63,323 nucleotides of DNA from a virus (IMGVR_UViG_3300047457_000456:1-63323), one strand, 5' to 3'. Positions 1 through 61,505 are shown, numbered from the stretch's first letter. Made by a program: numbers and translations. Notes: generated from the sequence alone by a model not told the origin.

Positions 1-13
1 GGCTTGCCGGGTG
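1..13. repeat. Terminal 13-nt direct repeat (copy at 63311-63323); circular-assembly overlap or short terminal repeat
   Basis: GGCTTGCCGGGTG is both the first and the last 13 nt of the window. Confidence 0.85.
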
Positions 14-325
14 GGGTTGGCTGGGTATCCGGGGGGTGTCTAGGTGGGCGACGGGTCGCATAAGGCTCCCTCTGTATTATTAGGCATGGTTAGGCGATGT
101 CTACCATGTCCTTTGGCTGCCAGCCACGCTGTATCATCCTGAACTGAGCACGGCGATTCTAGTCCGTGAACCGAGCGAGTCGGATACACCCTAATCAACA
201 GTTTGAGCGATACTCCACAACCCTGTGTCGATGTTCTGTGGTTGGTAGCCAAGTTTCTAATCCTAGATAGTCAATCTCCTATTCCCGGAGGTGCGGATGG
301 TTTATTCTGTCCGTGCCATTCCGGG

Positions 326-442
326 GTATCCCTGTCGGTGCCACCAATGTCATATGACCTGCGGTGTCATGGTTCGACTCCATGTAAGGGGTATACCCCA
401 CGCTAAGTGGGGACACGTGGGGTGCGCCTACATATCACGCAC
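326..442 (+). ncRNA. Structured leader of first early gene (T-arm + hairpin + pseudoknot)
   Basis: CATGG-TTCGACT-CCATG (368-384), CCCCAC-GCTAA-GTGGGG (396-412), GTGGG/CCTAC + GTGCG/CGCAC (417-442). Confidence 0.5.
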
Positions 443-460
443 ATTTCATAGGAGTCTAAA

Positions 461-820
461 ATGACTACACAAACTCTTCTCGCCGCTTCCATCGACCGCA
501 TCGTCCTCGGACGAGAGAAGGTCAAGTTCGGAACGGTTTACACCCTCCTCTACACGACGGCTAAGGCCATCGAGGGTGGCCGTATCGAAGACGTTAAGCG
601 TGCAAACGCTCTCATTGAGCGTTCTATCGCTGACGGAAGCATCGAACTCCTCTGCACCGACGAGCAGATGGAAATGCTTGAGTGGGGATTGGACCAGCTC
701 GCTAAGTTCACAACTGGCGAATGCATGGCCATCAAGGAGCGCAAGCAACTGGATGCGGTTGCTCTGCGTGTTGCTGACTTCAACCGTAAGGTTGCCCAGT
801 CGGCACAGTACGAGTTCTAA
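461..820 (+). CDS. Hypothetical early protein (119 aa)
   Basis: AGGAG RBS, ATG, strongly biased C/G-ending codons. Confidence 0.85.
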   Translation: MTTQTLLAASIDRIVLGREKVKFGTVYTLLYTTAKAIEGGRIEDVKRANALIERSIADGSIELLCTDEQMEMLEWGLDQLAKFTTGECMAIKERKQLDAVALRVADFNRKVAQSAQYEF

Positions 821-841
821 GAACTCACGATTGACAATCTG

Positions 842-873
842 GGAGTTTGGTGCATCTCCGGCAAAATGCACCA
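842..873 (+). ncRNA. H-type pseudoknot element, divergent copy
   Basis: GGAG(842-845)/CTCC(856-859) and TGGTGCAT(848-855)/ATGCACCA(866-873), upstream of AAGGAG RBS. Confidence 0.55.
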
Positions 874-900
874 CTATCTAGTTCCAAGGAGAAACGACAA

Positions 901-1071
901 ATGGTAAGCAAGCAACTGTATCTCGCCCTCTGCATTAAGATGCGCCTTCAATCGGCGCATTTCCAGATCAAACTGGACAACAATGGTGAGACACCAAGTT
1001 GGTATGTCCGCCGTATCCTCTTCCTAAACCGGGTAATCCGCAAGGAAGAGGCCAAAGCGTTTGGCCGGTAG
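901..1071 (+). CDS. Hypothetical basic protein (56 aa)
   Basis: AAGGAG RBS before ATG 901 (start revised from ORF track 847). Confidence 0.75.
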   Translation: MVSKQLYLALCIKMRLQSAHFQIKLDNNGETPSWYVRRILFLNRVIRKEEAKAFGR

Positions 1072-1123
1072 GCTGGTGCCTTGTAGGGGTTCGATTCCCC
1101 TACTACCTTTTTCCCAATAGGGA
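1067..1123 (+). ncRNA. Mini-tRNA-like element copy 1 + downstream hairpin
   Basis: GGTAG/CTACC + TAGGGG-TTCGATT-CCCCTA; linker GCTGGT; then TCCC-AATA-GGGA. Confidence 0.8.
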
Positions 1124-1141
1124 TGTTTGAAGGAGAAACCG

Positions 1142-1537
1142 ATGAATACTCATCAATTGGCAATGCTGAGGACCTTGGCCCTGATGTCTAAGGAAGAGCT
1201 TAGTAAGCTCAACATCAAAGGTCGTGACATCCACGACGTGACACGGAAGGTCACCTATCGTGACCAGAAGGGTGTCGAGACGGACTTCCTCGTTGACCTC
1301 AAATTCGCAATGAGGCATCACCGAGACCCCGAATGGAAGGGCTATTTAGTTGCACCATCGACGTGCGACAACCCTAGCTGTCCATTCCATACGGGACGCA
1401 CATTCGTGTACGTCTTTGATTACAAGGGATGGGGGAAGACGGAATGGATGTGGGATGCCCCCGATGGTGAGGGGGTTGACAGTGGTTGCGGAGACCACTC
1501 TTGGCTGACCGACGACATGAAGGTCGAGGTCAAGTAG
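1142..1537 (+). CDS. Hypothetical early protein
   Basis: AAGGAG RBS, ATG 1142; contains a CxxxxCxxH segment. Confidence 0.8.
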   Translation: MNTHQLAMLRTLALMSKEELSKLNIKGRDIHDVTRKVTYRDQKGVETDFLVDLKFAMRHHRDPEWKGYLVAPSTCDNPSCPFHTGRTFVYVFDYKGWGKTEWMWDAPDGEGVDSGCGDHSWLTDDMKVEVK

Positions 1538-1589
1538 ATAGACTGGGAAACCGGGGTTCGATTCCCCGGCTATCTTTCCCCAACAGGGG
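1536..1589 (+). ncRNA. Mini-tRNA-like element copy 2 + downstream hairpin
   Basis: AGATAG/CTATCT + CCGGGG-TTCGATT-CCCCGG; linker ACTGGG; then CCCC-AACA-GGGG. Confidence 0.8.
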
Positions 1590-1609
1590 TTTGTTTGAGG
1601 AGAAAGACA

Positions 1610-2098
1610 ATGATTACATTGATGTTTGACCACCCGACATTGGAAGCCACCATCAACGCAGGAATCACCACGTTCTGCCAGCGTGGCAACATCGCCATGC
1701 CGAAGAACGGCGATACCGTTGCATTGGCGTATGCCATTGCAAAAGATGTGCGCCCATATGGAATGATGTTCACTCACCAGATCCACCTTACGGACGATTT
1801 ATTTATTCAGCCGAAACACATTGACGACGAGCGCCACACATGTGAGTGGCTCGTATACCGTCACTGCCGAGTGGTGATTGACGGAGTTACAGTGGACGCA
1901 CCTGTCCACGTGGCCAACTTTGGCTGGTCGTCTGATTCATACAAACATGAGCCAGCCGAATATGGCAAGTATTGCTATCTAGCTGTCATGAGGGGGAATG
2001 AGAATACCCCCACGTGGGAGCAGATGTACTACGACCGAGAGTTGTTCTATGTAGAGTTTGAACGACAGAACATTGAGAAGATCAACGCTGGACGGTAG
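1610..2098 (+). CDS. Hypothetical early protein
   Basis: GAGGAG RBS, ATG 1610. Confidence 0.8.
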   Translation: MITLMFDHPTLEATINAGITTFCQRGNIAMPKNGDTVALAYAIAKDVRPYGMMFTHQIHLTDDLFIQPKHIDDERHTCEWLVYRHCRVVIDGVTVDAPVHVANFGWSSDSYKHEPAEYGKYCYLAVMRGNENTPTWEQMYYDRELFYVEFERQNIEKINAGR

Positions 2099-2150
2099 AG
2101 CTGGTGCTAAGCCGGGGTTCGATTCCACGGCTACCTTTCCCCAATAGGGG
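2094..2150 (+). ncRNA. Mini-tRNA-like element copy 3 + downstream hairpin
   Basis: GGTAG/CTACC + CCGGGG-TTCGATT-CCACGG (one mismatch); then CCCC-AATA-GGGG. Confidence 0.78.
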
Positions 2151-2176
2151 TTTGTTTGAGAAGGAGAATGGGAACT

Positions 2177-2395
2177 ATGTTTGAAGGATGGTTTACAGCT
2201 CACGGCTTCACATGTCGATGGTGGCCAGCAGAACACAACAACACATGGATATGCATTTCGACCAGCAATGGTCTCAATAAGCAGAAGGTGTACGTTGTTT
2301 CGCAGTCTCAACTGCGAGACAGGCTGTCTGATGCAGCCAAGACCTTGCCAAATGGCGAGGTCATAATCCCGCAAATCAAAATGATTGGCAACTAG
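2177..2395 (+). CDS. Hypothetical early protein
   Basis: AAGGAG RBS; ATG 2177 has better spacing than 2168. Confidence 0.7.
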   Translation: MFEGWFTAHGFTCRWWPAEHNNTWICISTSNGLNKQKVYVVSQSQLRDRLSDAAKTLPNGEVIIPQIKMIGN

Positions 2396-2454
2396 GTAGG
2401 CTGGTGCTAGGCTGGGGTTCGATTCCCCAGCTACCTTTTCTCCCTAGTGGAGAA
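2394..2454 (+). ncRNA. Mini-tRNA-like element copy 4 + downstream hairpin
   Basis: AGGTAG/CTACCT + CTGGGG-TTCGATT-CCCCAG; then TTCTCC-CTAGT-GGAGAA. Confidence 0.8.
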
Positions 2455-2472
2455 GTTTGAAGGAGAAAGACA

Positions 2473-2652
2473 ATGACGGAAAGAGAAAAAAGAATAGCTG
2501 CAATCAATGCAAAAATGCCAGAAGGCCAACAACTGCCAGCTGATTATTGCGTGGCAGATACGGTGGCTATGGTCATTAACTTGTTGCTTGCAAGCCTCGT
2601 CGTTGGCACGATTATGTATGACATGATCGTCACACTTATGTCGAAAGGGTAA
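2473..2652 (+). CDS. Small membrane protein (59 aa, not in ORF track)
   Basis: AAGGAG RBS; MTEREKRIAAINAK...AMVINLLLASLVVGTIMYDMIVTLMSKG, hydrophobic C-half. Confidence 0.7.
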   Translation: MTEREKRIAAINAKMPEGQQLPADYCVADTVAMVINLLLASLVVGTIMYDMIVTLMSKG

Positions 2653-2656
2653 TCTA

Positions 2657-2842
2657 ATGCAGAATCTCGTAAATCGTAATCGTAAATTGGTTGATGCCAA
2701 CACTGGCCTCACCATGCTCTGCGTGGCACTGGCAATCATGTGCCTCGCATGTTTCACGCAGAACATCAAGCTGCGTGAGAAGAACGCACACCTTGATGAC
2801 AGAATCGCTAACGCAGAGGCAGTCTGCGGACAGAAGTTCTAA
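2657..2842 (+). CDS. Small membrane protein
   Basis: One hydrophobic helix followed by a coiled-coil-like segment. Confidence 0.65.
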   Translation: MQNLVNRNRKLVDANTGLTMLCVALAIMCLACFTQNIKLREKNAHLDDRIANAEAVCGQKF

Positions 2843-2877
2843 TCACTATGGGGGATGCGCATCCTACACGCATACTA
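2843..2877 (+). repeat. 35-nt exact intergenic repeat, pseudoknot-family variant (copy A)
   Basis: TCACTATGGGGGATGCGCATCCTACACGCATACTA identical to 3037-3071. Confidence 0.9.
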
Positions 2878-2895
2878 GAAAGGAGATTAAATAGC

Positions 2896-3036
2896 ATGAA
2901 TATTCAAGACATCATTGCCACTGTCTGCTTAGTGCCAGTTGCCTTTGTTGCTATTGGGTCAGCAATATGTTTGCTCTGTATGCCTTTTCACTACCTTTCA
3001 GATTATATGCATTTAATCTGTAGGAAAAAGTCTTAG
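2896..3036 (+). CDS. Small membrane protein (46 aa)
   Basis: AAGGAG RBS, hydrophobic helix; flanked by the 35-nt repeats. Confidence 0.65.
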   Translation: MNIQDIIATVCLVPVAFVAIGSAICLLCMPFHYLSDYMHLICRKKS

Positions 3037-3071
3037 TCACTATGGGGGATGCGCATCCTACACGCATACTA
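3037..3071 (+). repeat. 35-nt exact intergenic repeat, pseudoknot-family variant (copy B)
   Basis: Identical to 2843-2877, begins right after TAG. Confidence 0.9.
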
Positions 3072-3085
3072 CAAAGGAGATAGAG

Positions 3086-3301
3086 ATGAAGAAAGAACAA
3101 GAAGCCCACGACAAGGCATTGCAAGCCATGCATGAGTTCTTCTGGAACCGCAAGCCTACCGATCCGTTGGTAGAAACCATGCGTAGACAGAAGGAACTGG
3201 TTGAAGCATGGCATCAGGCCGAGAAGGCATACAAAGCAGCATACGCAGAAGCTATGCGTAAGAAGTTCCTCGACTTAGGAGATACAAATGAAGCAGTATG
3301 A
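3086..3301 (+). CDS. Hypothetical helical protein
   Basis: AAGGAG RBS; overlaps next gene. Confidence 0.75.
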   Translation: MKKEQEAHDKALQAMHEFFWNRKPTDPLVETMRRQKELVEAWHQAEKAYKAAYAEAMRKKFLDLGDTNEAV

Positions 3302-3707
3302 ATGTGGTTTCGGTAACAAGCGTGTTGATATAGGATTTCACACGTACTACGCAGTGTGTGCTGACACACCTGAAGCAATCAGCTACAAACTTGATCTACT
3401 CAAAGACAGCTTACGGCATCGATTTGAGTTTACGCATCAAGATACAGGAGCACTTTGGTCTTTTGATGTAAAGAAGATACATGTGTACACAGTCACCAAA
3501 AAGTACAGTCTGAATCGTGGGTCAATCAAAGAATGTCTGTCTGTACCACCTGACATTTCTTTCAGTATCGCTCTCGAAGGCAGGTGCGCCCTGCATACAG
3601 AGGGCAAGGCAAGTTGTCCCGATGATGCTTGCCAATACTTAAGGGCAGCTCTTGATAGGGCTATCCCTGAATCAATCGGAATAAACTTTTTTGAGGTAAT
3701 CAAATGA
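3288..3707 (+). CDS. Hypothetical protein
   Basis: AGGAG RBS; ATGA coupling to next gene. Confidence 0.75.
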   Translation: MKQYECGFGNKRVDIGFHTYYAVCADTPEAISYKLDLLKDSLRHRFEFTHQDTGALWSFDVKKIHVYTVTKKYSLNRGSIKECLSVPPDISFSIALEGRCALHTEGKASCPDDACQYLRAALDRAIPESIGINFFEVIK

Positions 3708-4027
3708 ACACACAACCAATCTACACAGCTAAAGAACTCGCACAGATCGAGAAGATTCGTCAACGTGCTATCGATCGGGCTAACCGAAAGCCTAAGCCTA
3801 AGATCTTCACGACTCGCCTAAACAAGTCCGAATACAAGTACCTTGTGTCGGCTGTTGGGCGTGACATCCTGTGCAAGGCTGTAGATACTACACAAGCACA
3901 GACCTACACATCAGAAGCTGCTGCTGAGAAGATGCTATTGGCTCTGGCTGTAAGCCCACAAGAGCATGGTGTACTACTACGCTTTGCCAAAATGGTAGCC
4001 GACAAGAAGGCACAACTCAGCCAGTAG
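3704..4027 (+). CDS. Hypothetical protein
   Basis: GAGGT RBS, translational coupling. Confidence 0.75.
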   Translation: MNTQPIYTAKELAQIEKIRQRAIDRANRKPKPKIFTTRLNKSEYKYLVSAVGRDILCKAVDTTQAQTYTSEAAAEKMLLALAVSPQEHGVLLRFAKMVADKKAQLSQ

Positions 4028-4105
4028 GGGTGTAAATAAAGAGGGGTGTAAAATTTATACCCCTCAATTTTTACTAGGGGGGAGGGTGTAAAATTTACTA
4101 CCCTC
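4026..4105. repeat. Triple GGGTGTAAA repeat; two copies inside inverted repeats
   Basis: GAGGGGT-GTAAAATTTAT-ACCCCTC (4041-4065) and GAGGGT-GTAAAATTTACT-ACCCTC (4082-4105), partial copy 4026-4036. Confidence 0.75.
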
Positions 4106-4141
4106 ATTACATTGAAGGAAAAGCAATAAGGAACTATAGTA

Positions 4142-4369
4142 ATGGCACGTGAGAAGAAGGTAGAGAGAGATATCCGCATTGAGTATCCATCAAGGAAGAC
4201 AACGGATGATTCATACAAAGCCAAGTGGGGCGTGTATGAGTACATTGTCAAGGAAGATGGCACTGTAGACCGCAGGTTCCTGCAAGACTTTGATTACCGT
4301 GACATGGCAGTCGAGGCTTACCCTGAAGCCACATTCAAGCCGAGCGGATATGTGAACCCAGAACTATGA
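4142..4369 (+). CDS. Hypothetical protein
   Basis: TAAGGA RBS, ATGA coupling. Confidence 0.75.
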   Translation: MAREKKVERDIRIEYPSRKTTDDSYKAKWGVYEYIVKEDGTVDRRFLQDFDYRDMAVEAYPEATFKPSGYVNPEL

Positions 4370-4686
4370 GATTCCAAGTAGGCTCGCGAGTACGTAATGT
4401 ACGACGACCAGATGTGATTGGTGTGGTGACATCACTTGATGCACCCGCCAATCAGTGGAAGGTGCGACCAGAAGACTTTCGCATCACCGTCAAGTACCCA
4501 CGGGTAACTAAGACGAGCAATGGCAAGTGGAAAGGAGGCGAACTGGACGAGTTGCCAGCTGACCTTCTCCTCACAGGAGAAAAGCCACATGAGGCATACA
4601 CAGAACTACTCAAGAAGAATGCCTACGGTGTTGTAGCAAACATCGGGGCATGGGACAAGAAGAAAGCTAACGAGAGAAAGACATGA
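4366..4686 (+). CDS. Hypothetical protein with SH3/KOW-like N-terminus
   Basis: MRFQVGSRV...IGVV pattern typical of small beta-barrel phage proteins. Confidence 0.65.
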   Translation: MRFQVGSRVRNVRRPDVIGVVTSLDAPANQWKVRPEDFRITVKYPRVTKTSNGKWKGGELDELPADLLLTGEKPHEAYTELLKKNAYGVVANIGAWDKKKANERKT

Positions 4687-4799
4687 CAGCGATAGTAATA
4701 TGCTCATGCATAGCCATCCTTTCAATCATCGGTTTGATCGGATGGTTTTTTAATTCAATAGAAGAAGCACAGAAAAGGATAGACGACAGAGATGAATAA
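4683..4799 (+). CDS. Small membrane peptide (38 aa, not in ORF track)
   Basis: MTAIVICSCIAILSIIGLIGWFF...; fills the gap and overlaps both neighbours. Confidence 0.55.
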   Translation: MTAIVICSCIAILSIIGLIGWFFNSIEEAQKRIDDRDE

Positions 4800-5178
4800 C
4801 ATTATCGAGCCACACATTCTCGCAACTCAAGTTCTCCGCGCTTACAGTAAGCACGAAGAGATCACTAACATCGAGTTCCACAATGACTTCAACATGCGGT
4901 CTAAGCACCGCTGTAACCTCAATGGGACAATCAACATCACACTTATCATGCAGTATGAACGCATGACTAACGCCGTATACAGGCTCAACCTTTCCATCCA
5001 CGACAAGACGTGGCGCATCAAGAGTGACGGTTACATCAAAGATGTCAACGTTGCATACGACCAATCATGCCCGGATTGCCAGCCAACATACATGATGATG
5101 CGAATGTACGCTGAGACATTCGTAGATACTGTACTCAAGCTCAAGACCGTTGAAGGTCATGGGTTCCTCGTAGACTAA
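4792..5178 (+). CDS. Hypothetical protein
   Basis: ORF in operon; CxxC near C-terminus. Confidence 0.75.
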   Translation: MNNIIEPHILATQVLRAYSKHEEITNIEFHNDFNMRSKHRCNLNGTINITLIMQYERMTNAVYRLNLSIHDKTWRIKSDGYIKDVNVAYDQSCPDCQPTYMMMRMYAETFVDTVLKLKTVEGHGFLVD

Positions 5179-5213
5179 TCACTACTGAGGGGTGCGTCTC
5201 AGTGACAACGCAC
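5179..5213 (+). ncRNA. H-type pseudoknot element
   Basis: CTGAG/CTCAG and GTGCGT/ACGCAC, starting right after TAA. Confidence 0.75.
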
Positions 5214-5229
5214 AAGAAAGAGAAAACAA

Positions 5230-5538
5230 ATGCTTACACACTACCTTAACCTCATCCTTAACTACGCCTATCGTCGCATCCATCCCGGCGGTGCGTTTGA
5301 GGCATTCATCAAGCAACAGCCTGATGCCATTTACAGACTGGATAAAGATGCACAGCGCAACCTTGCAGAGATCTGGAAGTTTGCATATCAGCATCTTGAC
5401 CACAGTTCATGGGGCGCACAAGGCTTTGAGAACTGGGTGGCAGGTACACCTACAGAAGCAGAGCTTACAGACTACTACAAATACTACAACGACTTAATCA
5501 AAACAGATTGGACACAGGTGGATACAAGTCATGGCTAA
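5230..5538 (+). CDS. Hypothetical phage protein
   Basis: PGG.F.A...WG..NW pattern resembling other small phage proteins. Confidence 0.75.
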   Translation: MLTHYLNLILNYAYRRIHPGGAFEAFIKQQPDAIYRLDKDAQRNLAEIWKFAYQHLDHSSWGAQGFENWVAGTPTEAELTDYYKYYNDLIKTDWTQVDTSHG

Positions 5539-5803
5539 CTACCCGTATATTTACACTTGCCAGTGTTATGACTTTGAGGGTCGAGAATTCGGCCCTCCTA
5601 TTGTTTGGAGAACTGCAGCATGGGCTAAAACGTGGTCTCGATACAGAGTTATTATTCAAGAAGAAACCACACCCGTAATGAATGTACGGATAACACGTAG
5701 AAGGAATGGAGCATACATCGATGAGCCGTTCATGCTAGTCTGGTTTGATAACAAAACTGGACAACCAACACAGACACGAAAGAAGGAACATTTAATCAAA
5801 TGA
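5531..5803 (+). CDS. Hypothetical protein
   Basis: Overlap-coupled ORF. Confidence 0.7.
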   Translation: MANYPYIYTCQCYDFEGREFGPPIVWRTAAWAKTWSRYRVIIQEETTPVMNVRITRRRNGAYIDEPFMLVWFDNKTGQPTQTRKKEHLIK

Positions 5804-6138
5804 TTTACACAGAACGAGAAATAGTAACCACGTTGTATGACATCCAACGTGCTATACAAAAAATCGATCCAGTGATGTTTGGATGCCTTAACGAAGATCA
5901 TATTCTTAAGATCATGCAGAGTTCGCTTGGTCGCAAAATCAAAATAGATAAAGAGTTATACGGCACAGTTATGTTTCTTAATGAAGTCATAGTCCTGTTG
6001 TACAACGCTAAACAGAAAGACATACCAGAAGATCTGAATGTCTATCTTGAAACATGGAGATTAGCAATCTATCCCCTGTTCAAACATTATGTTGAAGAAC
6101 GTGCTGGCCGATTCATCTTTGTTCGCGTAAAGAAATAA
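5800..6138 (+). CDS. Hypothetical protein
   Basis: ATGA-coupled ORF. Confidence 0.7.
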   Translation: MIYTEREIVTTLYDIQRAIQKIDPVMFGCLNEDHILKIMQSSLGRKIKIDKELYGTVMFLNEVIVLLYNAKQKDIPEDLNVYLETWRLAIYPLFKHYVEERAGRFIFVRVKK

Positions 6139-6173
6139 CTAGATGTGAGGGGTGCGTCTCACTAACAACGCAC
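6139..6173 (+). ncRNA. H-type pseudoknot element
   Basis: GTGAG/CTCAC and GTGCGT/ACGCAC, right after TAA. Confidence 0.75.
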
Positions 6174-6188
6174 AGAAAGAGAAACAAA

Positions 6189-6692
6189 ATGTCAACAATT
6201 AATATTCACTCCGATTACTTCAAGTCTAGCTTGCTCGCCCTCAAGGGCAAGATCGATGATGGCATTGCAAGGTCATATGATTACTACCAAGTTTGTTATC
6301 ATGACGACACTCAGTTCATTAACAATCACAGAATCAATGCTGCATATCGGTTGCGCTTTAATGCCGCAAGTGTAGACGATAATGGCGTTATGACAATGCT
6401 TGATAAACCAGTAGCGTTGATAACTGCTGAACTTGAGTATCGTGAGTCAAAAGATAGTACTGATAGTTGTGCATCAAAGAAGAAGGCATACGATGTCATA
6501 CTTCCTGATGGCACACTGGAAGAACAAATAGATTACGCCATTGAGGTATTCAAGACCGTGATTACTGAGAATCAGATACCACAAATCCCACTGGACTTTT
6601 GGAGGTTTGCATCGGAAGGTATGGCAAAGTGGGAAAAGGCATACGAAGTCACACTCAAGGCTCATCAACTAACTCTGTCCGCTAAGGACTAA
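6189..6692 (+). CDS. Hypothetical protein
   Basis: 167-aa ORF bounded by pseudoknot elements. Confidence 0.8.
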   Translation: MSTINIHSDYFKSSLLALKGKIDDGIARSYDYYQVCYHDDTQFINNHRINAAYRLRFNAASVDDNGVMTMLDKPVALITAELEYRESKDSTDSCASKKKAYDVILPDGTLEEQIDYAIEVFKTVITENQIPQIPLDFWRFASEGMAKWEKAYEVTLKAHQLTLSAKD

Positions 6693-6727
6693 CTGGATGT
6701 GAGGGGTGCGTCTCACCGACAACGCAC
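6693..6727 (+). ncRNA. H-type pseudoknot element
   Basis: GTGAG/CTCAC and GTGCGT/ACGCAC, right after TAA. Confidence 0.75.
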
Positions 6728-6749
6728 AACCACACACTAAGGAAACACT

Positions 6750-7013
6750 ATGAAGTACACAATACACACATTTCGTTCTCTCGTTGACGAGATGATGATT
6801 GATCACGTTGGATTAACAACCAATGACCTACCAGACGTAAGCCTGTGGGATTACTTTGATCCAGATGAAGACTATACACAAGAAGAAATATCTGAAGCTG
6901 CAATGCAAGCTGTCATGGCAGTACTTGAAGAGGGAGATTGTCCACAAGACATCATCGACTCTATTGTTTCCGCTGTTACAAGCATGGAAGCACGAACACT
7001 GAGAGGAATATAA
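6750..7013 (+). CDS. Small acidic protein
   Basis: TAAGGA RBS; D/E-rich. Confidence 0.75.
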   Translation: MKYTIHTFRSLVDEMMIDHVGLTTNDLPDVSLWDYFDPDEDYTQEEISEAAMQAVMAVLEEGDCPQDIIDSIVSAVTSMEARTLRGI

Positions 7014-7019
7014 ATAACA

Positions 7020-7487
7020 ATGCCACTTACATACGACACAACTAACTGCCACCCATTAGTTCGCGAAGAACTTGCTGGCATCACAGAATCAATCATCTTT
7101 ATAACCATGAATACAAGACATGGATGGGAGTTGAACAAAAAGACAATGCCCGTTTTCATTCGCAGGTTCAATCTCTTAAATAAAACATGGAGGTATTTAT
7201 GTATGGCTGACACAACGCATATGCGACGAACACATGACCGTATATGGCTTGACAAGTTTGGACTGCAATGGATTGGCGATGAGTATCCTCACCTTGTTCT
7301 GACTGAAGACTCAGTGCAGACGTATTGGTTCGGACTCAAAACTAATTGTGGTCAAGACACAGATGCAAAATGGAACAAGAACTTCTTGGAGAACCAATAT
7401 CGTGAGTCTTTTGAGCAGAGTCCGTTTTATCTGCGATACAGAACGATTGAACAAGTAAAGGATTTATTCAATGAGCTTTGTATTTAG
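7020..7487 (+). CDS. Hypothetical protein
   Basis: ORF in operon. Confidence 0.75.
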   Translation: MPLTYDTTNCHPLVREELAGITESIIFITMNTRHGWELNKKTMPVFIRRFNLLNKTWRYLCMADTTHMRRTHDRIWLDKFGLQWIGDEYPHLVLTEDSVQTYWFGLKTNCGQDTDAKWNKNFLENQYRESFEQSPFYLRYRTIEQVKDLFNELCI

Positions 7488-7788
7488 GCCTATTGTGTAC
7501 ACATTCTGGAGCACGTTCGGGGATAACACCCCGAACGACTTCATCGCTCGTTATATCGAACCAAGGTATGGCAATGCTGACGGTGTAGCAATACGCCGTA
7601 GACTTGCCCGTGAGATTGGTTGTACTGGACTACGGCGTGGTGTTGAGTACTACGTCACTGATGTCTATCACAGCATGTTCAGTGAACGTCACTGCATGGT
7701 GGGTTTTGCTGAAGTGCTTGCACCTATAACCGTTGAGTCCAAGAAAGAAGCACAAGAAATCTGTGCAAATATGGAGTTAAAGCAATGA
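7471..7788 (+). CDS. Hypothetical protein
   Basis: Overlap-coupled ORF. Confidence 0.7.
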   Translation: MSFVFRPIVYTFWSTFGDNTPNDFIARYIEPRYGNADGVAIRRRLAREIGCTGLRRGVEYYVTDVYHSMFSERHCMVGFAEVLAPITVESKKEAQEICANMELKQ

Positions 7789-8168
7789 GTGAATGGTTCA
7801 GTCTAGAAGACCGCAACTATCAGAACGACCACCGTGTACGCGGTGGTCGTGATCGTTGGTGGATTGCAATTGATGAACGCAAGATGCTAGTGAGGCACAA
7901 GTATGACAGTAAAAACAATAAACAAGTTTGGTACAAGTTTAAATATGAAGCTTGTGATACATGTGATGGCAAAGGTCATCATGTTAATCCTTCTGTTGAC
8001 TGCGACGGTCTAACAGCTGAGGATATGTATTATGGCGGTTACGAAGAAGATTATTTTTCTGGCGTGTACGACGTTGCTTGCTACAAATGCCATGGTGAAC
8101 GAGTCATGCCAGTAAAGTTCGGAAAAGCAATATACAAAAAATCAAATGAGGAGAATCGTTATGAGTGA
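7785..8168 (+). CDS. DnaJ-type zinc-finger-like protein
   Basis: CDTCDGKG ... CYKCHGER (CxxCxGxG-type repeats). Confidence 0.65.
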   Translation: MSEWFSLEDRNYQNDHRVRGGRDRWWIAIDERKMLVRHKYDSKNNKQVWYKFKYEACDTCDGKGHHVNPSVDCDGLTAEDMYYGGYEEDYFSGVYDVACYKCHGERVMPVKFGKAIYKKSNEENRYE

Positions 8169-9185: not shown

Positions 9186-10079
9186 ATGACAGCAAGAGAA
9201 TACCTAAACAAGTTTGGGCTGGATGCAAATCCAGCCCTTTTTACTAACGTAACCAATGGCAAAGACATGAAGCCCAAGTACAACTCGTACTGCTTTTATG
9301 ACGGGGCATCGCAGCTTGATAGGCGACATCCTATCATCGCTGTAATGTCCAATTGCCAATACAACCCAGAGGATTACAACATCAAGACTGGTGATATGCT
9401 GCAGACCTACATCATCATGCGTAACATTCACCCTCAGCATGCCATTGACTTTATGATTGATGACTGCATTTGTGGTCAATGCATACATCGAAAGAGTTGG
9501 AAGGTACACATTGTCAATGGCAAGCGTAAGCTTGTACGTACTTGTTATGTCAACATTGGCAAGGGTGTCACTGCAATTTGGGAATCATTCCAGAAAGGTA
9601 AGATACCAATTGTGTCTAGTACTGTTGCTGCAACAATACAAGTTGTTGCTGGCAAGCAGACTCGTATGGGTTCATATGGTGATCCTGTAGCCGTGCCATT
9701 CCCAATATGGGGTGACCTATTACGTTACAGTCTAGGTCATCGTGGTTATACACATCAATGGCGTAGCAAACTAGCTCAACCATTCAAGGGCATACTCCAA
9801 GCATCATGTGATAGTTACACTGATCAAGAAGATGCAGAGCGAGCTGGATGGGGTACGTTCACTGTGCTGCCTCAACATGACTACGTCAATCGTAGGCATG
9901 TAGCGTACAGCAAGGGCATGAAGCAATGCCCTAGTGATCCATTCATCAATGAGATGCGAGCGTATCGCAATATGCTACCGATGCATACAACCTGTGTTGG
10001 TTGTCCTGCATCTCTTCAATGTGATGGCGACAGTCATGTTGTCATCCGTGCCCATGGCAGTGCAGCTGCTTGGGTTTAA
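9186..10079 (+). CDS. Cys-rich putative Fe-S protein (Gp88/DUF7227-like)
   Basis: NxKTG, CGxC, CYV, RxGxYGDP, GYTHQW, CP, CxxC..C, AHG motifs. Confidence 0.65.
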   Translation: MTAREYLNKFGLDANPALFTNVTNGKDMKPKYNSYCFYDGASQLDRRHPIIAVMSNCQYNPEDYNIKTGDMLQTYIIMRNIHPQHAIDFMIDDCICGQCIHRKSWKVHIVNGKRKLVRTCYVNIGKGVTAIWESFQKGKIPIVSSTVAATIQVVAGKQTRMGSYGDPVAVPFPIWGDLLRYSLGHRGYTHQWRSKLAQPFKGILQASCDSYTDQEDAERAGWGTFTVLPQHDYVNRRHVAYSKGMKQCPSDPFINEMRAYRNMLPMHTTCVGCPASLQCDGDSHVVIRAHGSAAAWV

Positions 10080-10112
10080 TTAAACAAACAAATAAACACG
10101 AGGTAACACAAT

Positions 10113-10535
10113 ATGTTTTATTCAGTATGCGAAGAAGAAGAATGGTCAACTGACCATTACGATTATGCACGTGACCAGCACTACACAGAAGACGGGGAGT
10201 TCCTCTCCCCGTGCGTTGGTGTAGAGTTGATGTCGCGTGTAGGCAAGATGATATTTACAGATGTCAGCGTTGTCTACGAAGACAGGCGTGTCATTGAGTT
10301 CATTGATGAGGCTGTCAAACAGATGAAGATTGACAGACCAACAAGCGATGAGATCGAGAAGTTCTGTGCTCTCGTTTCGTCTACATACCATGAGTCAGAC
10401 ATTGACGAGTTCAATAACGCAATGTTTGAGTTTATATATGACTGCACATACAGCGAGTGGACAGACATGTACAGTGGGCAAGACTTGTACGATGATTGCT
10501 CACTACTACAACCATATGGATGGGGAGAAGACTGA
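10113..10535 (+). CDS. Highly acidic protein
   Basis: GAGGT RBS; D/E-rich. Confidence 0.75.
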   Translation: MFYSVCEEEEWSTDHYDYARDQHYTEDGEFLSPCVGVELMSRVGKMIFTDVSVVYEDRRVIEFIDEAVKQMKIDRPTSDEIEKFCALVSSTYHESDIDEFNNAMFEFIYDCTYSEWTDMYSGQDLYDDCSLLQPYGWGED

Positions 10536-10852: not shown

Positions 10853-11168
10853 CACACACATTAAGTGGATAGTAGGCGATATTAATCGAGAGTTTTGGTA
10901 TGACCAGATTTATGAAGGCGCACGTCATTGCGAATGGATTAATAGTTGGACTATCAATTGGCTTGGCAACGCAAAAGATTATTTCCATGTTGACATTCAA
11001 GATGATGAAGGCAAAATGCACTGCGTTTCGTCAGTAGATGTATTGTTGTGGTTGCGAAAAGCATGGATGCTTGGAGATCGCTCGTTTGAGGAGGAGCAAG
11101 ATGTAGATCAAGACGTTATTGACACAATGCTACAAGAGATATGTTTCGGTGAATTAGTTTACGGATAA
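10839..11168 (+). CDS. Hypothetical acidic phage protein
   Basis: AGGAG RBS; C-terminal Q.ICFGELVYG motif. Confidence 0.75.
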   Translation: MQASDTHIKWIVGDINREFWYDQIYEGARHCEWINSWTINWLGNAKDYFHVDIQDDEGKMHCVSSVDVLLWLRKAWMLGDRSFEEEQDVDQDVIDTMLQEICFGELVYG

Positions 11169-18282: not shown

Positions 18283-19047
18283 GTAGACTTTCTTTTGGTC
18301 ACTATTGACGATGCAATCAAAACCAAGGCTCCGAGCAACATCTCGGACAGGCGCATATGATTTGCCATCTCGTAGAATACATTGAACGGCCAGTACTTCA
18401 CCGTTAAGTACTGGCCCATCTTCCCAAGCCAATACAAAGTTATCCCCAAGGACAAGCCGAACAAAGTCTCTGACAGGAGCATACGTCTTGCCATTTTGTA
18501 ATAACGCGACAATGTGATTTTCTCCATTGACAATCTTCCAGTCCTGTCCAGACTGGATTAACGACCAAGGGCGGATGAAGTAAACTAAATCCTTCTTTCT
18601 ATTTCCAAATAAAGGTCTGTGTGCAACCTCATAACCATTCCTGCTACCATCATTGTTGCTATTGCCTTCAATAGATTTCCAAATACCGTTTTCATCTGCA
18701 CCTTCAACAACACCAATGTGAAACGCATCTTGCTGTCCATTACTTAACGTCTTGACTAAAATCATTAAGTCGCCAGCCTGTGGAGATCGATGTAATACAC
18801 CATTTCTTTTTGCAACCGCAAGCCACACATCACAGTCCGCGCTGAAACAGAGTGGCCAATCCAAGCCACTCTTGGTTTCCCATTCAAGCGCAATACCACT
18901 AACAAATGATGCGCACCAGAAACTACCAATCGGCGCATTGACATTTGTATTCCACCTGTCAATCAGTGGACCACGATTACTTCCAATTGGTTGTTCTTCA
19001 GTACCTATGTACTTTCTGGCTATGTCTACAAAAAGTTCTTTGCTCAC
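18262..19047 (-). CDS. Endolysin: CHAP amidase + C-terminal copper-amine-oxidase-N-like envelope-binding repeats
   Basis: WCASFV (Cys), HIGVV (His), SIEGN; two GK(T/S)YAPVRD repeats. Confidence 0.85.
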   Translation of the reverse strand: MSKELFVDIARKYIGTEEQPIGSNRGPLIDRWNTNVNAPIGSFWCASFVSGIALEWETKSGLDWPLCFSADCDVWLAVAKRNGVLHRSPQAGDLMILVKTLSNGQQDAFHIGVVEGADENGIWKSIEGNSNNDGSRNGYEVAHRPLFGNRKKDLVYFIRPWSLIQSGQDWKIVNGENHIVALLQNGKTYAPVRDFVRLVLGDNFVLAWEDGPVLNGEVLAVQCILRDGKSYAPVRDVARSLGFDCIVNSDQKKVYLKKQVV

Positions 19048-22000
19048 TATTTATTCACTCCACCTTCTCCAAAACCAGTTAGTACACCGCTGACACCAGA
19101 GTCACCAAGTACATCAATAATATTTCTATACTTAGCACTCTTCCTCATTTCTTTTAACTTACTTCTATTCGTCCCGCCGTCTGACCTTGCGTCTAACCAA
19201 GCCTTCTCATATTGATCAGTTACATTTAAGTTAAGTCCAATCAAGTTAGCAGCTGCAAGTGCTGGCATGGATTCATAGTTTTTATCATCAATAAAGTACA
19301 ACTCTTCTCCCATAATAGCCCTCTGAAGATCAATGTCGTCTTCAATAGAATTCATCTGAGATAACTCGTTAATGGTAAACACAAGCTCTGTTGCAAAGCG
19401 TGATATTTCAGGTGGAGACATACGCAATATCTCACCAACAAGTGGTATGTTTCCATAACTTTCTAAAGCCTTCTTGCGCATTTCTCGGTAGCCTAAACTA
19501 TTTTCAAATGCAGCTCTACCTATATAGTCTTTGCCAGAAATTCCAGTTTTTAACAAACTCAGCAATGGACTCATTGCATTCTCTACATATTGAGTTAGAT
19601 ACCATTGCATAGTAGTGGCTATACCAGCATCACCAATCTTTGTTGGCCTAAGTGTTTGTCTAGTCATGCGACCCAATGCACCCGGCATAGATGAAGAATA
19701 TGTTTTTCCTTTATGTTCAAATGTCATCATTCCACTTAATGCGTCAGTTGCAGTATCTGCAATAAACTTAAACTTGTCAGGTTTTTCGTCTGAGTCTTCA
19801 AGTACAGTTGCAACTGCTTTACCAAATGCTAAAAGCTTTAACAAACGCCAGCCAAGTGGACCAACAAGTGACGATGCAAAACCAGTGTAGAACTTACGTT
19901 TAATATAGGCATTTGCGTAACCACTAAATTCTGGCGACCCCATTAATACACGTTGTTCTGTCTGAGTGTTAATGCGAGTATTAGAACCAGATAACTCAAA
20001 ACCCTTATTAACTAATTGTTTAGCTCCTAACAAAATGTGGCCAACACCCGGAGTTAATACCATTCGAGTTTTTGTATATGGCGCAGAAAAGAATAACTTT
20101 GAGAATGCTGACTGCACTTTGTTTAGCTGATCACTATTACTAAACTGACCTTGATCATTACCGCCAAGTAAGTTTACTGACCAAGCTATATCTTTCAGTA
20201 ATCGTTGTTGGAATTGCTCCTGTGTACCAACAAAGTCAGCAGGTCTTCCAACTTTAATTACATTTTGATATTCATCTTGGAACGCCATGATTTTTGCAAG
20301 GTCCTTGTAAATCACGTTGGTTCGTTCAAAAGCTGACAATCCCGGCGCAATCTTTTTGAATACTGCGGTAATGTGACCTTCACCAAGCATGTCATCAAAT
20401 CGTGAGTTTAAAGGTATATCTTCCTTACGGATGTCTGGATTTTCACCCAACGCTTCCTTGAATAAATTAAAGTGTTTTAGATAATCAAGGCTTAAACCAT
20501 ATGCTTGCATATCTTCAAGTGATAAGTCAGGCACAAAGTTTAGTACAGTCTCTATAGCAAGATGTACAGCCTTATCACCAAATGCTGTATCTCCAGCTTG
20601 CGCTAAAGCATGCCTTGGATTAGCAATAGATTGCTTTAAACTTGGAAGGTTTGGAGCCATTCCGATTATTGAAAGTGCAACACTACTCATCATTGGTGGC
20701 CGTTTACCAGACGCTAATGACATAAAGTCACCTAACCAGTTAGCATTCAAGTAGCTTTGGTTTGCCATAGCTGATAAGTCGCGTGATAACTTTGCAATGC
20801 GAACAAGAGAGTCAATCTCAAGCAAGCCTTGACCAATGCCATTTGCAGCAACCTGTGCTCCTTTGCCAAGTTTTGTAATAGTTTTTGCTGCATTACTGCC
20901 AGCTTTAATATTCTTTGCCCCATTTGCATCTACAGATACTTCAATGCGATCTGGGTCCATCGATGGGTCTTCATCTAGTAAGTTAGCAAAATCTACGTCT
21001 GGATCTGGTTCCATTGCTTCTTTGACAAGTTGCCCGATGTCATCTGGGTTAGGATTATTACGCAACATTTCAATATCGCGTTGACTAAATCCGTTGGAGA
21101 ATAACGTTAATCCCCATGTTTCATCTGCATCATCAAGTTTAGAGGCGATAGTTCTGCCCTTACTCAATACCTTTCCGTTAGCGCCTTTACGCTCTTGTCC
21201 TGTTACTGTACGTAACTTTTCTGCAATCGGTGCATTCTCATTCATTGCTTTCTTTACAAGTATCTTAGCAATGTGAACTTCAGGTAATGATATGCCAGCT
21301 GCGTTTGATTGATCAGACGCAAGTAGTCCACCAAGACCTAACTTTCGGTTCATGACTGCATCTTCCGTAAATGGAATACCTCGATCACGAATACGCCAAG
21401 CATCTTGGTTTTTATCCCAAAGAACCTCAAGCGTTCTAAGCGTAACTAATTCACCCGGAACAGGATTTTTAAATGCTGACAAAATGTCATTTAAGTTCCT
21501 GAACTTAGATGGCATATCGACCTTGCCTCCAACATATTCATTTCTATGTGGTAGTGCAATGGTTATGATTTGACTATCAGGCTGATTAGGATCTTGTGTG
21601 CTTTTCATTGCAGCAGATAAGGCAGTCAGTGATTCGGAACCACCAACTAGCAAGTTTGTTTTTGGGTCTAAGAAGTCTTTTGGCAATATAGAATGTGGCT
21701 TAGTTGTGTCCTGTGGACTCAAGTAAACATATGTTTCCGTTGGATAGTATTCTCCATCTTGTGTTTGAGATACTGCACCAAACAAACGTTCGTCATCTGA
21801 TAATTGACCATACTTACCAGCACTGTCCGAAATCATAGCAGTTGCTTTAAAAAGACTTGTTCCAGTTTCAGACGTTTTTGATAATGGCCTATCACTGAAA
21901 ACCCACGATCCATCAACTTGATTGCGCTCAGCTAGTACAACGCGTCCATCATCTGGATTAACTGCGTAGTATGGTTTTAAACCTTCTGGTTTTTTAACAG

Positions 22001-61424: not shown

Positions 61425-61505
61425 TACCCCAGACGGGACTCGAACCCGTACACCTTGCGGTAACAGATTTTAAGTCTGTCGTGTCTACCATTCCACCACC
61501 GGGGC
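61425..61505 (-). tRNA. tRNA-Leu(UAA), CCA not encoded
   Basis: GCCCCGG/CTGGGGT acceptor, TGGTA D-loop, ACAGA-CTTAAAA-TCTGT anticodon arm, long variable arm, ACGGG-TTCGAGT-CCCGT. Confidence 0.93.

Follow-up and report, generated by a model that had tools for sequence, protein, structure and literature searches.

A conserved H-type pseudoknot between stop codons and ribosome-binding sites in the early genes of uncultivated phages

The early region of an uncultivated phage (IMG/VR virus record IMGVR_UViG_3300047457_000456:1-63323, linear, rated 100% complete; the whole stretch of 63,323 bp is referred to as the window) carries a short repeated RNA element, which is a new structured-RNA family of a known kind, the H-type messenger RNA (mRNA) pseudoknot. 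Seven copies in the window, all on the + strand, fit one such pseudoknot, three of them near-identical (termed canonical here) and four looser, and further copies occur in related and in unrelated phages. On comparative sequence evidence, the knot is a sense-strand RNA structure and not a DNA site, because both stems covary, G-U pairs occur, A-C never does, and all copies lie in the sense of the genes. An earlier reading of the window, made by a model without database searches (the sequence-only reading), had proposed a family of H-type pseudoknots between the stop codons and the ribosome-binding sites (RBSs) of early genes, and this proposal is borne out by the window copies as well as by the relatives. 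Small, strongly conserved and backed by covariation, this RNA is found in two or more unrelated lineages of uncultivated phages, and it opens a testable way into the partitioning, stability and translation of the tightly packed early transcripts of phages. To our knowledge, almost nothing is known about the handling of early transcripts outside T4, T7 and lambda.

Structure and conservation of the knot

In its general layout the knot has a first stem (P1) of 3-5 bp, a first loop (L1) of 1-2 nt, a second stem (P2) and a third loop (L3) of 4-6 nt, with a junction of 0-2 nt between the 5' strand of P2 and the 3' strand of P1. P2 has 5 bp in the canonical copies (GUGCG/CGCAC) and 8 bp in a divergent copy at 842; the canonical core comprises 29 bases and its L1 is GG. 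Canonical pseudoknot 1 (5185-5213, + strand) is made up of CTGAG (5185-5189), GG (5190-5191), GTGCG (5192-5196), a single T (5197), CTCAG (5198-5202), TGACAA (5203-5208) and CGCAC (5209-5213), and lies 6 nt past the TAA at 5176-5178 and 16 nt ahead of the ATG at 5230. Pseudoknots 2 (6145-6173, +) and 3 (6699-6727, +) share this layout with P1 GUGAG/CUCAC. The former stands 6 nt past the TAA at 6136-6138 and 15 nt ahead of the ATG at 6189, where the gene of a 167-aa protein begins, and the latter 6 nt past the TAA at 6690-6692 and 22 nt ahead of the ATG at 6750. Each of the three is followed by a purine-rich RBS that lacks GGAG, a feature which the sequence-only reading had ascribed to two copies and which holds for all canonical ones. 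The same reading had given P2 six pairs (GTGCGT/ACGCAC): five of them stand, and the sixth does not, since its 5' column is T, C or A opposite an invariant A, so that it counts as a junction of 1 nt. An alternative outer register, also proposed there, is not supported: its three pairs form together in 11 of the 67 distinct sequences, and of 201 cells 102 pair, compared with 106 of 201 after a slide by one column.

Nested folding of six copies yields either a P1 hairpin or a P2 hairpin at unremarkable z-scores (-1.33 to +0.07), and the case for the knot therefore rests on comparison. A strict descriptor applied to both strands of the window returned 5 matches, 3 of which are the family; 30 shuffled versions averaged 1.4 matches and never exceeded 4.

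Relatives were sampled without reference to the knot itself, by way of the 167-aa gene (6189-6692). A 16-sequence alignment of its protein retrieved 33 IMG/VR loci, a single-protein query none. Two covariance models (R1 and R2) were made from 31 seeds, one encoding P1 and the other P2, and a score of at least 30.5 bits was taken as a strong match. Both models find the same 86 strong matches in the window and the 33 relatives, 86 of 86 on the gene-sense strand; the three canonical copies score 50.3 bits (E 3.8e-13), 61.4 bits (E 1.1e-16) and 52.6 bits (E 7e-14), respectively, and the other 83 are further copies in the relatives. In 33 of 33 relatives the 167-aa gene is flanked by a knot on both sides, the positions homologous to canonical copies 2 and 3 being filled throughout, and in most of them a third knot follows about 0.9-1.1 kb upstream. 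The 86 copies comprise 23 distinct 29-nt cores, of which the commonest is identical in 26. This core is kept while the adjoining protein is only 25-37% identical among the relatives, which points to selection on the knot.

Together with copies of other phages, the copies with L1 GG (GG type) form a pooled alignment of 103 rows, which include 73 distinct sequences and 17 rows drawn from search patterns that fix P2. In it 730 of 730 pair cells hold standard pairs; slid controls pair in 18-55% of cells. P1 shows changes on both sides at 4 of its 5 pairs and occurs as GUGAG, CUGAG, ACGAG, ACGUG, AGCAG, AGGAG, CAGAG, CGCAG and, with a G-U pair, GCGAG. Double changes in P2 are found at 1 of 5 pairs, the closing one (GC 50, AU 13, GU 10, A-C 0). 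The covariation score is 0.220 versus 0.078 in shuffles, none of 500 reaching it. G-U pairs occur in 13 distinct sequences, and would be A-C mismatches on the opposite strand. P1 varies freely, and near-invariant are the GG of L1, the P2 strands GUGCG and CGCAC, the ACAA at the end of L3, and an A after the 3' strand of P2. L3 is A-rich, with 4 nt beside a P1 of 4 bp (e.g. L192, L197) and 6 nt beside a P1 of 5 bp. The loop lengths fit the geometry of an H-type pseudoknot, in which a short L1 crosses the deep groove of the second stem and a longer L3 runs beside the first, and the two stems are interleaved and both kept by compensatory change.

A second group of phages was first reached by a pattern scan, and 80 loci (L168-L247) were then retrieved through their primase. 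These loci contain a module of an exonuclease, Sak4, a DUF669 gene resembling single-stranded DNA-binding protein (SSB) genes, and a DUF3987 primase, and the knot sits between the SSB-like and the primase gene, a few nucleotides 5' of a tRNA-like RNA. No protein common to the two phage groups was found. A descriptor locates the knot followed by a T-loop 35-95 nt downstream in 74 of the 80 loci (L1 GG in 29, CU in 45), a count that includes a few likely spurious picks, the true knot being elsewhere by eye (e.g. L189, L190/L191, L229/L230, L247); for two of the six misses the locus is incomplete upstream. The CU-type knot has the architecture of the GG type and occupies the same slot, with P2 freely varying (GAGAUA, GAGACA, GAGCCA, AAGCCA, GGAACA, GGGGUA, GAGCA, GGCCA and others). 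In two gap-free CU-type alignments, anchored on the flanks rather than on structure, 99.3% and 99.2% of cells pair, and covariation is seen at 5 of 6 and 2 of 5 pairs of P2 and at 1 of 4 and 2 of 4 pairs of P1; over GG- and CU-type alignments taken together, slid controls pair in 11-55% of cells. The covariation of the CU type joined to that of the GG type therefore supports the pseudoknot fold in both stems. The sequence-only reading had inferred compensatory changes from the window copies and had suggested a covariance model as a check, and the homologues have indeed kept the pairing and not merely the sequence.

A site acting at the level of DNA, such as a recombination linker for gene shuffling, a site bound by protein or an N4-like hairpin promoter used by a virion RNA polymerase, might be thought of for a short, highly conserved repeat at the gene boundaries of an early region, the more so as the phage encodes a 3741-aa open reading frame (ORF; 19047-30272, -, at the end of the structural block) to which no function is assigned, and as some contigs are joined across copies (6181>6697, 6181>7019), perhaps only as an effect of the repeat. 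We regard such a site as extremely improbable. Covariation of both stems, the occurrence of G-U but never A-C, and the gene-sense orientation of all 86 copies contradict it, and none of the knots coincides with a sigma-70-like promoter. For the giant ORF, neither PHROGs nor the PDB sequences gave a match and Pfam returned only a sub-threshold RepB match, so that a polymerase in it would have to be very distant, and the second group has no RNA polymerase gene among the five replication-module genes examined. An N4-type hairpin promoter in particular was rejected, as the element consists of two interleaved stems rather than one hairpin and its G-U pairs fit the sense strand only.

The knot is absent from Rfam. 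In Rfam 15 no family matches it, the search of window positions 1-7500 at E<=10 having given five weak matches elsewhere and that of seven loci of other phages at E<=1 no match on the knot; this supports the novelty implied by the sequence-only reading. Families not matched include preQ1-I/II/III, SAM-II, guanidine-III and transfer-messenger RNA (tmRNA). It is also nearly absent from bacteria and archaea as far as a strict 19-base pattern can tell: in 185,579 representative genomes this pattern matched 6 stretches, one of which is a convincing copy, namely L164 in a metagenome-assembled genome of Gammaproteobacteria, the sole stretch with a complementary P1. No description of the knot was found in a literature search; it may stand as an unnamed entry among the 10,006 candidate structured RNAs catalogued from IMG/VR in PMC10690425.

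The Rfam result also bears on the idea of a small-molecule riboswitch aptamer of the preQ1-I size class, whose ligand-stabilised fold would alter access to the RBS. The conservation is aptamer-like, with a variable P1 and fixed loops and P2, and in many copies the RBS follows directly 3' of the second P2 strand. However, no riboswitch family of Rfam matches at E<=10, several copies occur per genome ahead of unrelated small genes without assigned function, the same knot also precedes tRNA-like RNAs, and there is no alternative pairing that hides the RBS, the 3' strand of P2 lying outside it. A riboswitch thus seems very improbable to us.

The four looser copies of the window depart from the canonical form in different ways. 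The leader copy (417-442, +), 18 nt ahead of the first gene (ATG 461), has P1 GTGG (417-420) with CTAC (428-431), L1 G (421), P2 GTGCG (422-426) with CGCAC (438-442), and L3 ATATCA. It had been listed as fitting the family, and it does so with a P1 of 4 bp including one G-U and a weak match of model R2 at 411-446 (17.6 bits, E 0.086). Relatives carry better-formed knots with a like upstream flank, followed by an RBS and ATG (L132 2820, L161 51, L155 2475), and P1 of these counterparts is CGAG/CTCG or GCGAG/CTCGT. The divergent copy (842-873, +) is built as claimed, with P1 GGAG/CTCC, L1 UU, P2 TGGTGCAT/ATGCACCA (in RNA, UGGUGCAU/AUGCACCA) and L3 GGCAAA; it lies 21 nt past the stop at 818-820, ahead of the RBS of the gene at 901. 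The copy is conserved in relatives, with an identical counterpart in L122 (347-378), and in L135/L136 and L160 the second P2 pair passes from G-C through G-U to A-U. The loose short variant occurs twice (2850-2873 and 3044-3067, both +), within the two copies of an exact 35-nt repeat (2843-2877 and 3037-3071). With P1 GGG/UCC including one G-U, L1 GG, P2 AUGCG/CGCAU and L3 UACA, it fits the knot only weakly and competes with a GGAU/AUCC hairpin, and its nested fold is as ambiguous as had been stated. Both covariance models missed this variant, and it has no homologue among the 33 relatives.

Placement between genes and possible roles

The distance from the upstream stop codon to P1 is nearly fixed. 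Among the 86 copies the spacer measures 5 nt in 4, 6 nt in 38, 7 nt in 29, 8 nt in 14 and 11 nt in 1, so that 85 lie 5-8 nt past the stop, and from the end of the knot to the next start codon there are 8-26 nt. Downstream, two classes of leader can be told apart, beginning with AGAAAGAG and with ACUACACAAUACAAAGG, respectively. The RBS abuts the knot in most copies (e.g. CGCAC-AGAAAGAG or CGCAC-AGGAGG), and a second class of copies ends 24-26 nt ahead of the start codon. In other phages the knot precedes RNAs of the tRNA kind: the GG-type knot of L051 ends 4 nt ahead of a real tRNA-Asn, in 5 relatives a tRNA-like element lies 4-7 nt downstream of the 842-type knot, and of 41 scored loci of the second group, 29 have an acceptor-like stem that starts about 3-5 nt past the knot, with an ambiguous register in the others (this spacing measure is imprecise, and offsets of 8-9 nt in 11 of the 41 loci are probably register errors). 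The stop-anchored spacing and the tRNA-like neighbours suggest a function for the upstream side at least as much as for the downstream side.

Based on this dataset, we hypothesize that the knot may be an end-protecting, insulating punctuation module of polycistronic early mRNA, a reading which we favour tentatively and to which we would give somewhat less than an even chance. The knot would act in cis, just past the footprint of a ribosome halted at the upstream stop codon, and the next functional RNA would follow directly behind it: an RBS in this phage, a tRNA-like element or tRNA in relatives. Endonucleolytic processing would cut the message downstream of the knot, and in the relatives the cutter might be RNase P at the adjoining tRNA-like element. 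With its tail of a few bases, the knot would then block 3'-to-5' exonucleases, sparing the upstream cistron and its stop codon, and translation upstream would not affect how the RBS or tRNA-like element behind the knot folds. It is processing, end protection and insulation that we infer here; structure, strand, positions and conservation are observed. If truly end-protecting or insulating, the knot could be a portable 29-nt part for synthetic operons.

A broader version of this hypothesis is rather doubtful in our view. Phages of at least two unrelated lineages might use a modular RNA punctuation code, in which a knot is placed at the edge of the ribosome, a tRNA-like element recruits host RNase P, the knot serves as a near-flush 3' cap, and, in the second lineage, a loop complementary to the Shine-Dalgarno sequence (anti-SD loop) controls the next gene. 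Such a code would be the bacterial-virus counterpart of mitochondrial tRNA punctuation, with an exonuclease-blocking cap. The partnership of the knot with minimal and anti-SD tRNA-like RNAs points to a wider, undescribed layer of RNA-based control in phages.

Several observations weigh against the punctuation module. The three canonical copies have no adjoining tRNA-like element, and no nuclease can be assigned to the cut that would create their protected end. At the leader copy (417-442) there is no ORF upstream that a cap could shield. Three second-group examples (three loci only) have about 10-14 nt between stop and knot, and a conserved AAUGGGCA lies upstream of the knot in most of the second-group loci listed. 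The tight spacing to the stop may in part reflect genome compaction. As for the structure, covariation of P2 within the GG type is confined to one pair, the model seeds had an invariant P2, and P2 was fixed in the 17 pattern-derived rows. None of the 22 sequencing runs listed with the phage is an RNA run, and no cleavage site or RNA end can be read from them; within the source study, the two runs that carry an RNA label (X21, X22) contain nothing over the region, and X20 is probably DNA. Finally, L1, P2 and L3 hardly vary even between unrelated phages, more than a mere roadblock would require, which suggests recognition by a host factor or ligand.

This last point leads to a translational operator, i.e. 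a knot bound by a host protein, the ribosome or a phage protein such as the 167-aa protein, by which translation of the next gene would be repressed or enhanced. Known phage operators of this kind are those of T4 gene 32, regA and the coat proteins of MS2 and PP7. We consider an operator unlikely, while acknowledging what speaks for it: the near-invariant positions (GG of L1, P2, the ACAA end of L3, the A after P2) beside a variable P1, the purine-rich RBS abutting most copies, and the knots on either side of the 167-aa gene in every relative. Yet the GG-type knot of the second group precedes a tRNA-like RNA and not an RBS, and is interchangeable there with a CU type of other sequence. The two phage groups have no protein in common that could be found, and copies of the second class end 24-26 nt ahead of the start codon. 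The 167-aa protein itself (6189-6692, +) is modelled by AlphaFold2 at a pLDDT of 87.3, with two N-terminal helices, a predicted four-stranded antiparallel sheet and two C-terminal helices, and this model has no convincing fold match. No PHROG family matches the protein, Foldseek against PDB gave nothing at E<=0.001 (best E>=4e-3), and in a wide structure comparison (VIA) the best Z of 6.5 (CapZ-like, actin capping protein) is within the chance range, single-stranded RNA phage coat proteins reaching Z 3.6.

Protection might also concern the other end of the transcript, as the sequence-only reading had proposed besides an operator or enhancer. After a cut in the spacer between stop codon and knot, the knot would be left as a 5' end that hinders 5'-end-dependent entry of RNase E or a 5'-3' exonuclease such as RNase J, comparable to the protection by 5'-terminal structures that is established for ompA-type leaders. 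The knot is always 5' of a functional RNA (RBS, tRNA-like element or tRNA), and the leader copy, which lies downstream of a T-arm and hairpins, lacks an upstream ORF, as would be expected from a 5' stabiliser. However, RNase P acting at a following tRNA or tRNA-like element is expected to sever the knot from the downstream RNA, leaving it nothing to protect on that side, and the spacing is tight to the stop codon, not to the downstream start. There is no sign of the ring-like fold known from exonuclease-resistant RNAs (xrRNAs). We would therefore call a 5' stabiliser distinctly unlikely.

Still less probable is an element directed at the ribosome, be it a barrier to post-termination sliding and re-initiation or a stimulator of re-initiation, readthrough or frameshifting. 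Recoding pseudoknots are H-type knots placed 5-8 nt past the A-site codon, as for readthrough in murine leukaemia virus (MuLV) and for -1 frameshift stimulators, and the spacer in 85 of 86 copies has just this geometry, but the second-group knot lies further from the stop, ahead of a non-coding RNA. Recoding was rejected on the frames: the downstream frame is closed between stop and start in 81 of 86 copies, and the relative frames 0, 1 and 2 occur 27, 31 and 28 times. Readthrough at canonical copies 1 and 2 would likewise meet a stop within 9 codons.

Gene neighbourhood and other RNA elements

The + strand of the phage carries small genes up to about 18.3 kb, the last of which encodes a DnaB-like helicase, and the - strand carries the structural genes (terminase, portal, major head protein and the 3741-aa ORF). 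Most of the 22 sequencing runs listed with the phage are DNA metagenomes from fresh water and rivers. Searches of the GenBank phage collection gave no match to window positions 1-8000 by megablast or blastn, nor to the major head protein by tblastn, and a scan of the window at the Rfam gathering thresholds gave a tRNA-Leu (61425-61505) as its sole match. The canonical knots part blocks of overlapping genes (4142-5178, 5230-6138, 6189-6692 and from 6750 onward), and in the first 7.1 kb all intergenic gaps of at least 40 nt carry a structured element, i.e. a knot, a tRNA-like minihelix or twin hairpins. None of the genes that follow the canonical copies (5230-5538, 6189-6692, 6750-7013) is identified as SSB. 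Contigs of other runs join 6181>6697 and 6181>7019, skipping the 167-aa gene or this gene and the next, with only 28-30 letters on the shorter side; these joints may be assembly artefacts at the repeat or cassette-loss variants by recombination between knots.

Four tRNA-like minihelices lie between early genes (1067-1107, 1537-1574, 2094-2135 and 2395-2435, all +), and a further T-arm lies at 368-384. In all four the acceptor-like stem overlaps the stop codon upstream; each also has a bulge of 9-12 nt beginning with GCUGGUGC, and a T-arm with the loop UUCGAUU, and is devoid of an anticodon arm; the T-arm GGTTCGANTCC is stacked on the acceptor-like stem. A small C/G hairpin, a U-run and an RBS follow each time, and the stems covary between copies. 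ARAGORN calls no tRNA at the tRNA-like elements, and Rfam gives only tmRNA T-arm fragments of 12-13 bits at the minihelices of the window. The minihelices might serve as signals for RNase P or RNase Z, or act as terminators. At 2436-2472, and at the equivalent places past the other minihelices, a pyrimidine tract UUUUCUCC has two alternative pairing partners, the GGAGAA next to it and the real RBS GGAGAAAG, an arrangement that may constitute an anti-SD/SD switch.

In the second phage group the tRNA-like RNA lies about 30-110 nt past the knot (e.g. L225 1412-1478) and combines an acceptor-like stem, a small D-like element and a T-arm with an enlarged anticodon-like loop containing CUCCUUU, which resembles an anti-SD sequence. 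In 45 of 53 loci this loop is complementary to the RBS of the primase gene over 6 nt or more; the mean complementarity is 7.4 nt for own pairs and 6.5 nt for non-own pairs. Real tRNA genes are often found downstream of the tRNA-like RNA.

Other elements were seen in passing. In the 114-nt gap upstream of the gene at 4142 there are twin hairpins (4041-4065 and 4082-4105, +) with the common loop GUAAAAUUUA; the first is followed by AAUUUUU and is terminator-like, and the pair may mark a border between transcription units. A three-copy repeat of the form ATATGT.TT...G.GAAGA in the middle region (8023-8050, 10111-10138 and 11036-11063, +; 71-75% alike) may be a promoter-like or regulatory site. 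L117 contains a type II hammerhead ribozyme (9433-9503, -; 40.6 bits, gathering score 37) on the same strand as its knot, which is another self-processing RNA between phage genes.

Comparison with known systems

The knot and the operator of T4 gene 32 are both H-type pseudoknots that stand before an RBS in the leader of a phage mRNA. There is no likeness in sequence, the knot is present in multiple copies, and an adjoining unstructured operator tract is not evident. Autoregulation of the gene 32 type was rejected, since no SSB gene follows the window copies and the second-group knot comes after, not before, the DUF669 SSB-like gene. The parallels to gene 32 and to xrRNAs drawn by the sequence-only reading are thus no more than analogies: an SSB gene follows none of the copies, and a ring-like fold is not evident. 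Recoding pseudoknots share the spacing, but 81 of the 86 knots have no open extension frame behind them.

PMC12710915 reports that RNase P cuts a pseudoknot substrate only if it carries a 3' RCCA. The phage knots differ from that substrate in having no 3' RCCA, except for an ACCA in L051.

With preQ1-I (RF00522) the knot shares a size of about 30-34 nt, a variable P1 of 5 bp, an A-rich 3' loop along P1 and conserved loops beside the RBS. It differs in its P2 of five G-C-rich pairs, which begins 2 nt past the 5' strand of P1 and ends 0-1 nt before the 3' strand of P1. No match to preQ1-I was obtained at E<=10, the knot also stands before tRNA-like RNAs, and the genes concerned are unrelated to queuosine.

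The xrRNAs of flaviviruses and plant viruses are exonuclease-resistant RNAs, and a mechanical block to exonucleases is what we propose for the knot as well. In contrast to xrRNAs, the 29-nt knot is much smaller, has no evident three-way junction or ring, and would act mainly in the 3'-to-5' direction.

A pseudoknot directly 5' of a tRNA-like RNA is reminiscent of tobacco mosaic virus (TMV) and turnip yellow mosaic virus (TYMV), whose tRNA-like structures have an upstream pseudoknot domain. Moreover, a coaxial stack of P1 and P2 of about 10-11 bp resembles an acceptor/T minihelix. The phage elements differ from these in belonging to a DNA phage, in lying within mRNA rather than at the 3' end of a genome, and in having no CCA end.

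Punctuation between cistrons has precedents in the repetitive extragenic palindromic (REP) hairpins, the RNase III sites of the T7 early region, RNase P cuts in operons, and mitochondrial tRNA punctuation. Unlike simple hairpins of this kind, the knot is a sequence-conserved H-type pseudoknot, and it lies at a near-fixed 5-8 nt from the stop codon. As in those intercistronic stabilisers, short structured RNAs are placed between cistrons, and in the relatives the knots are joined to tRNA-like elements that could recruit RNase P.

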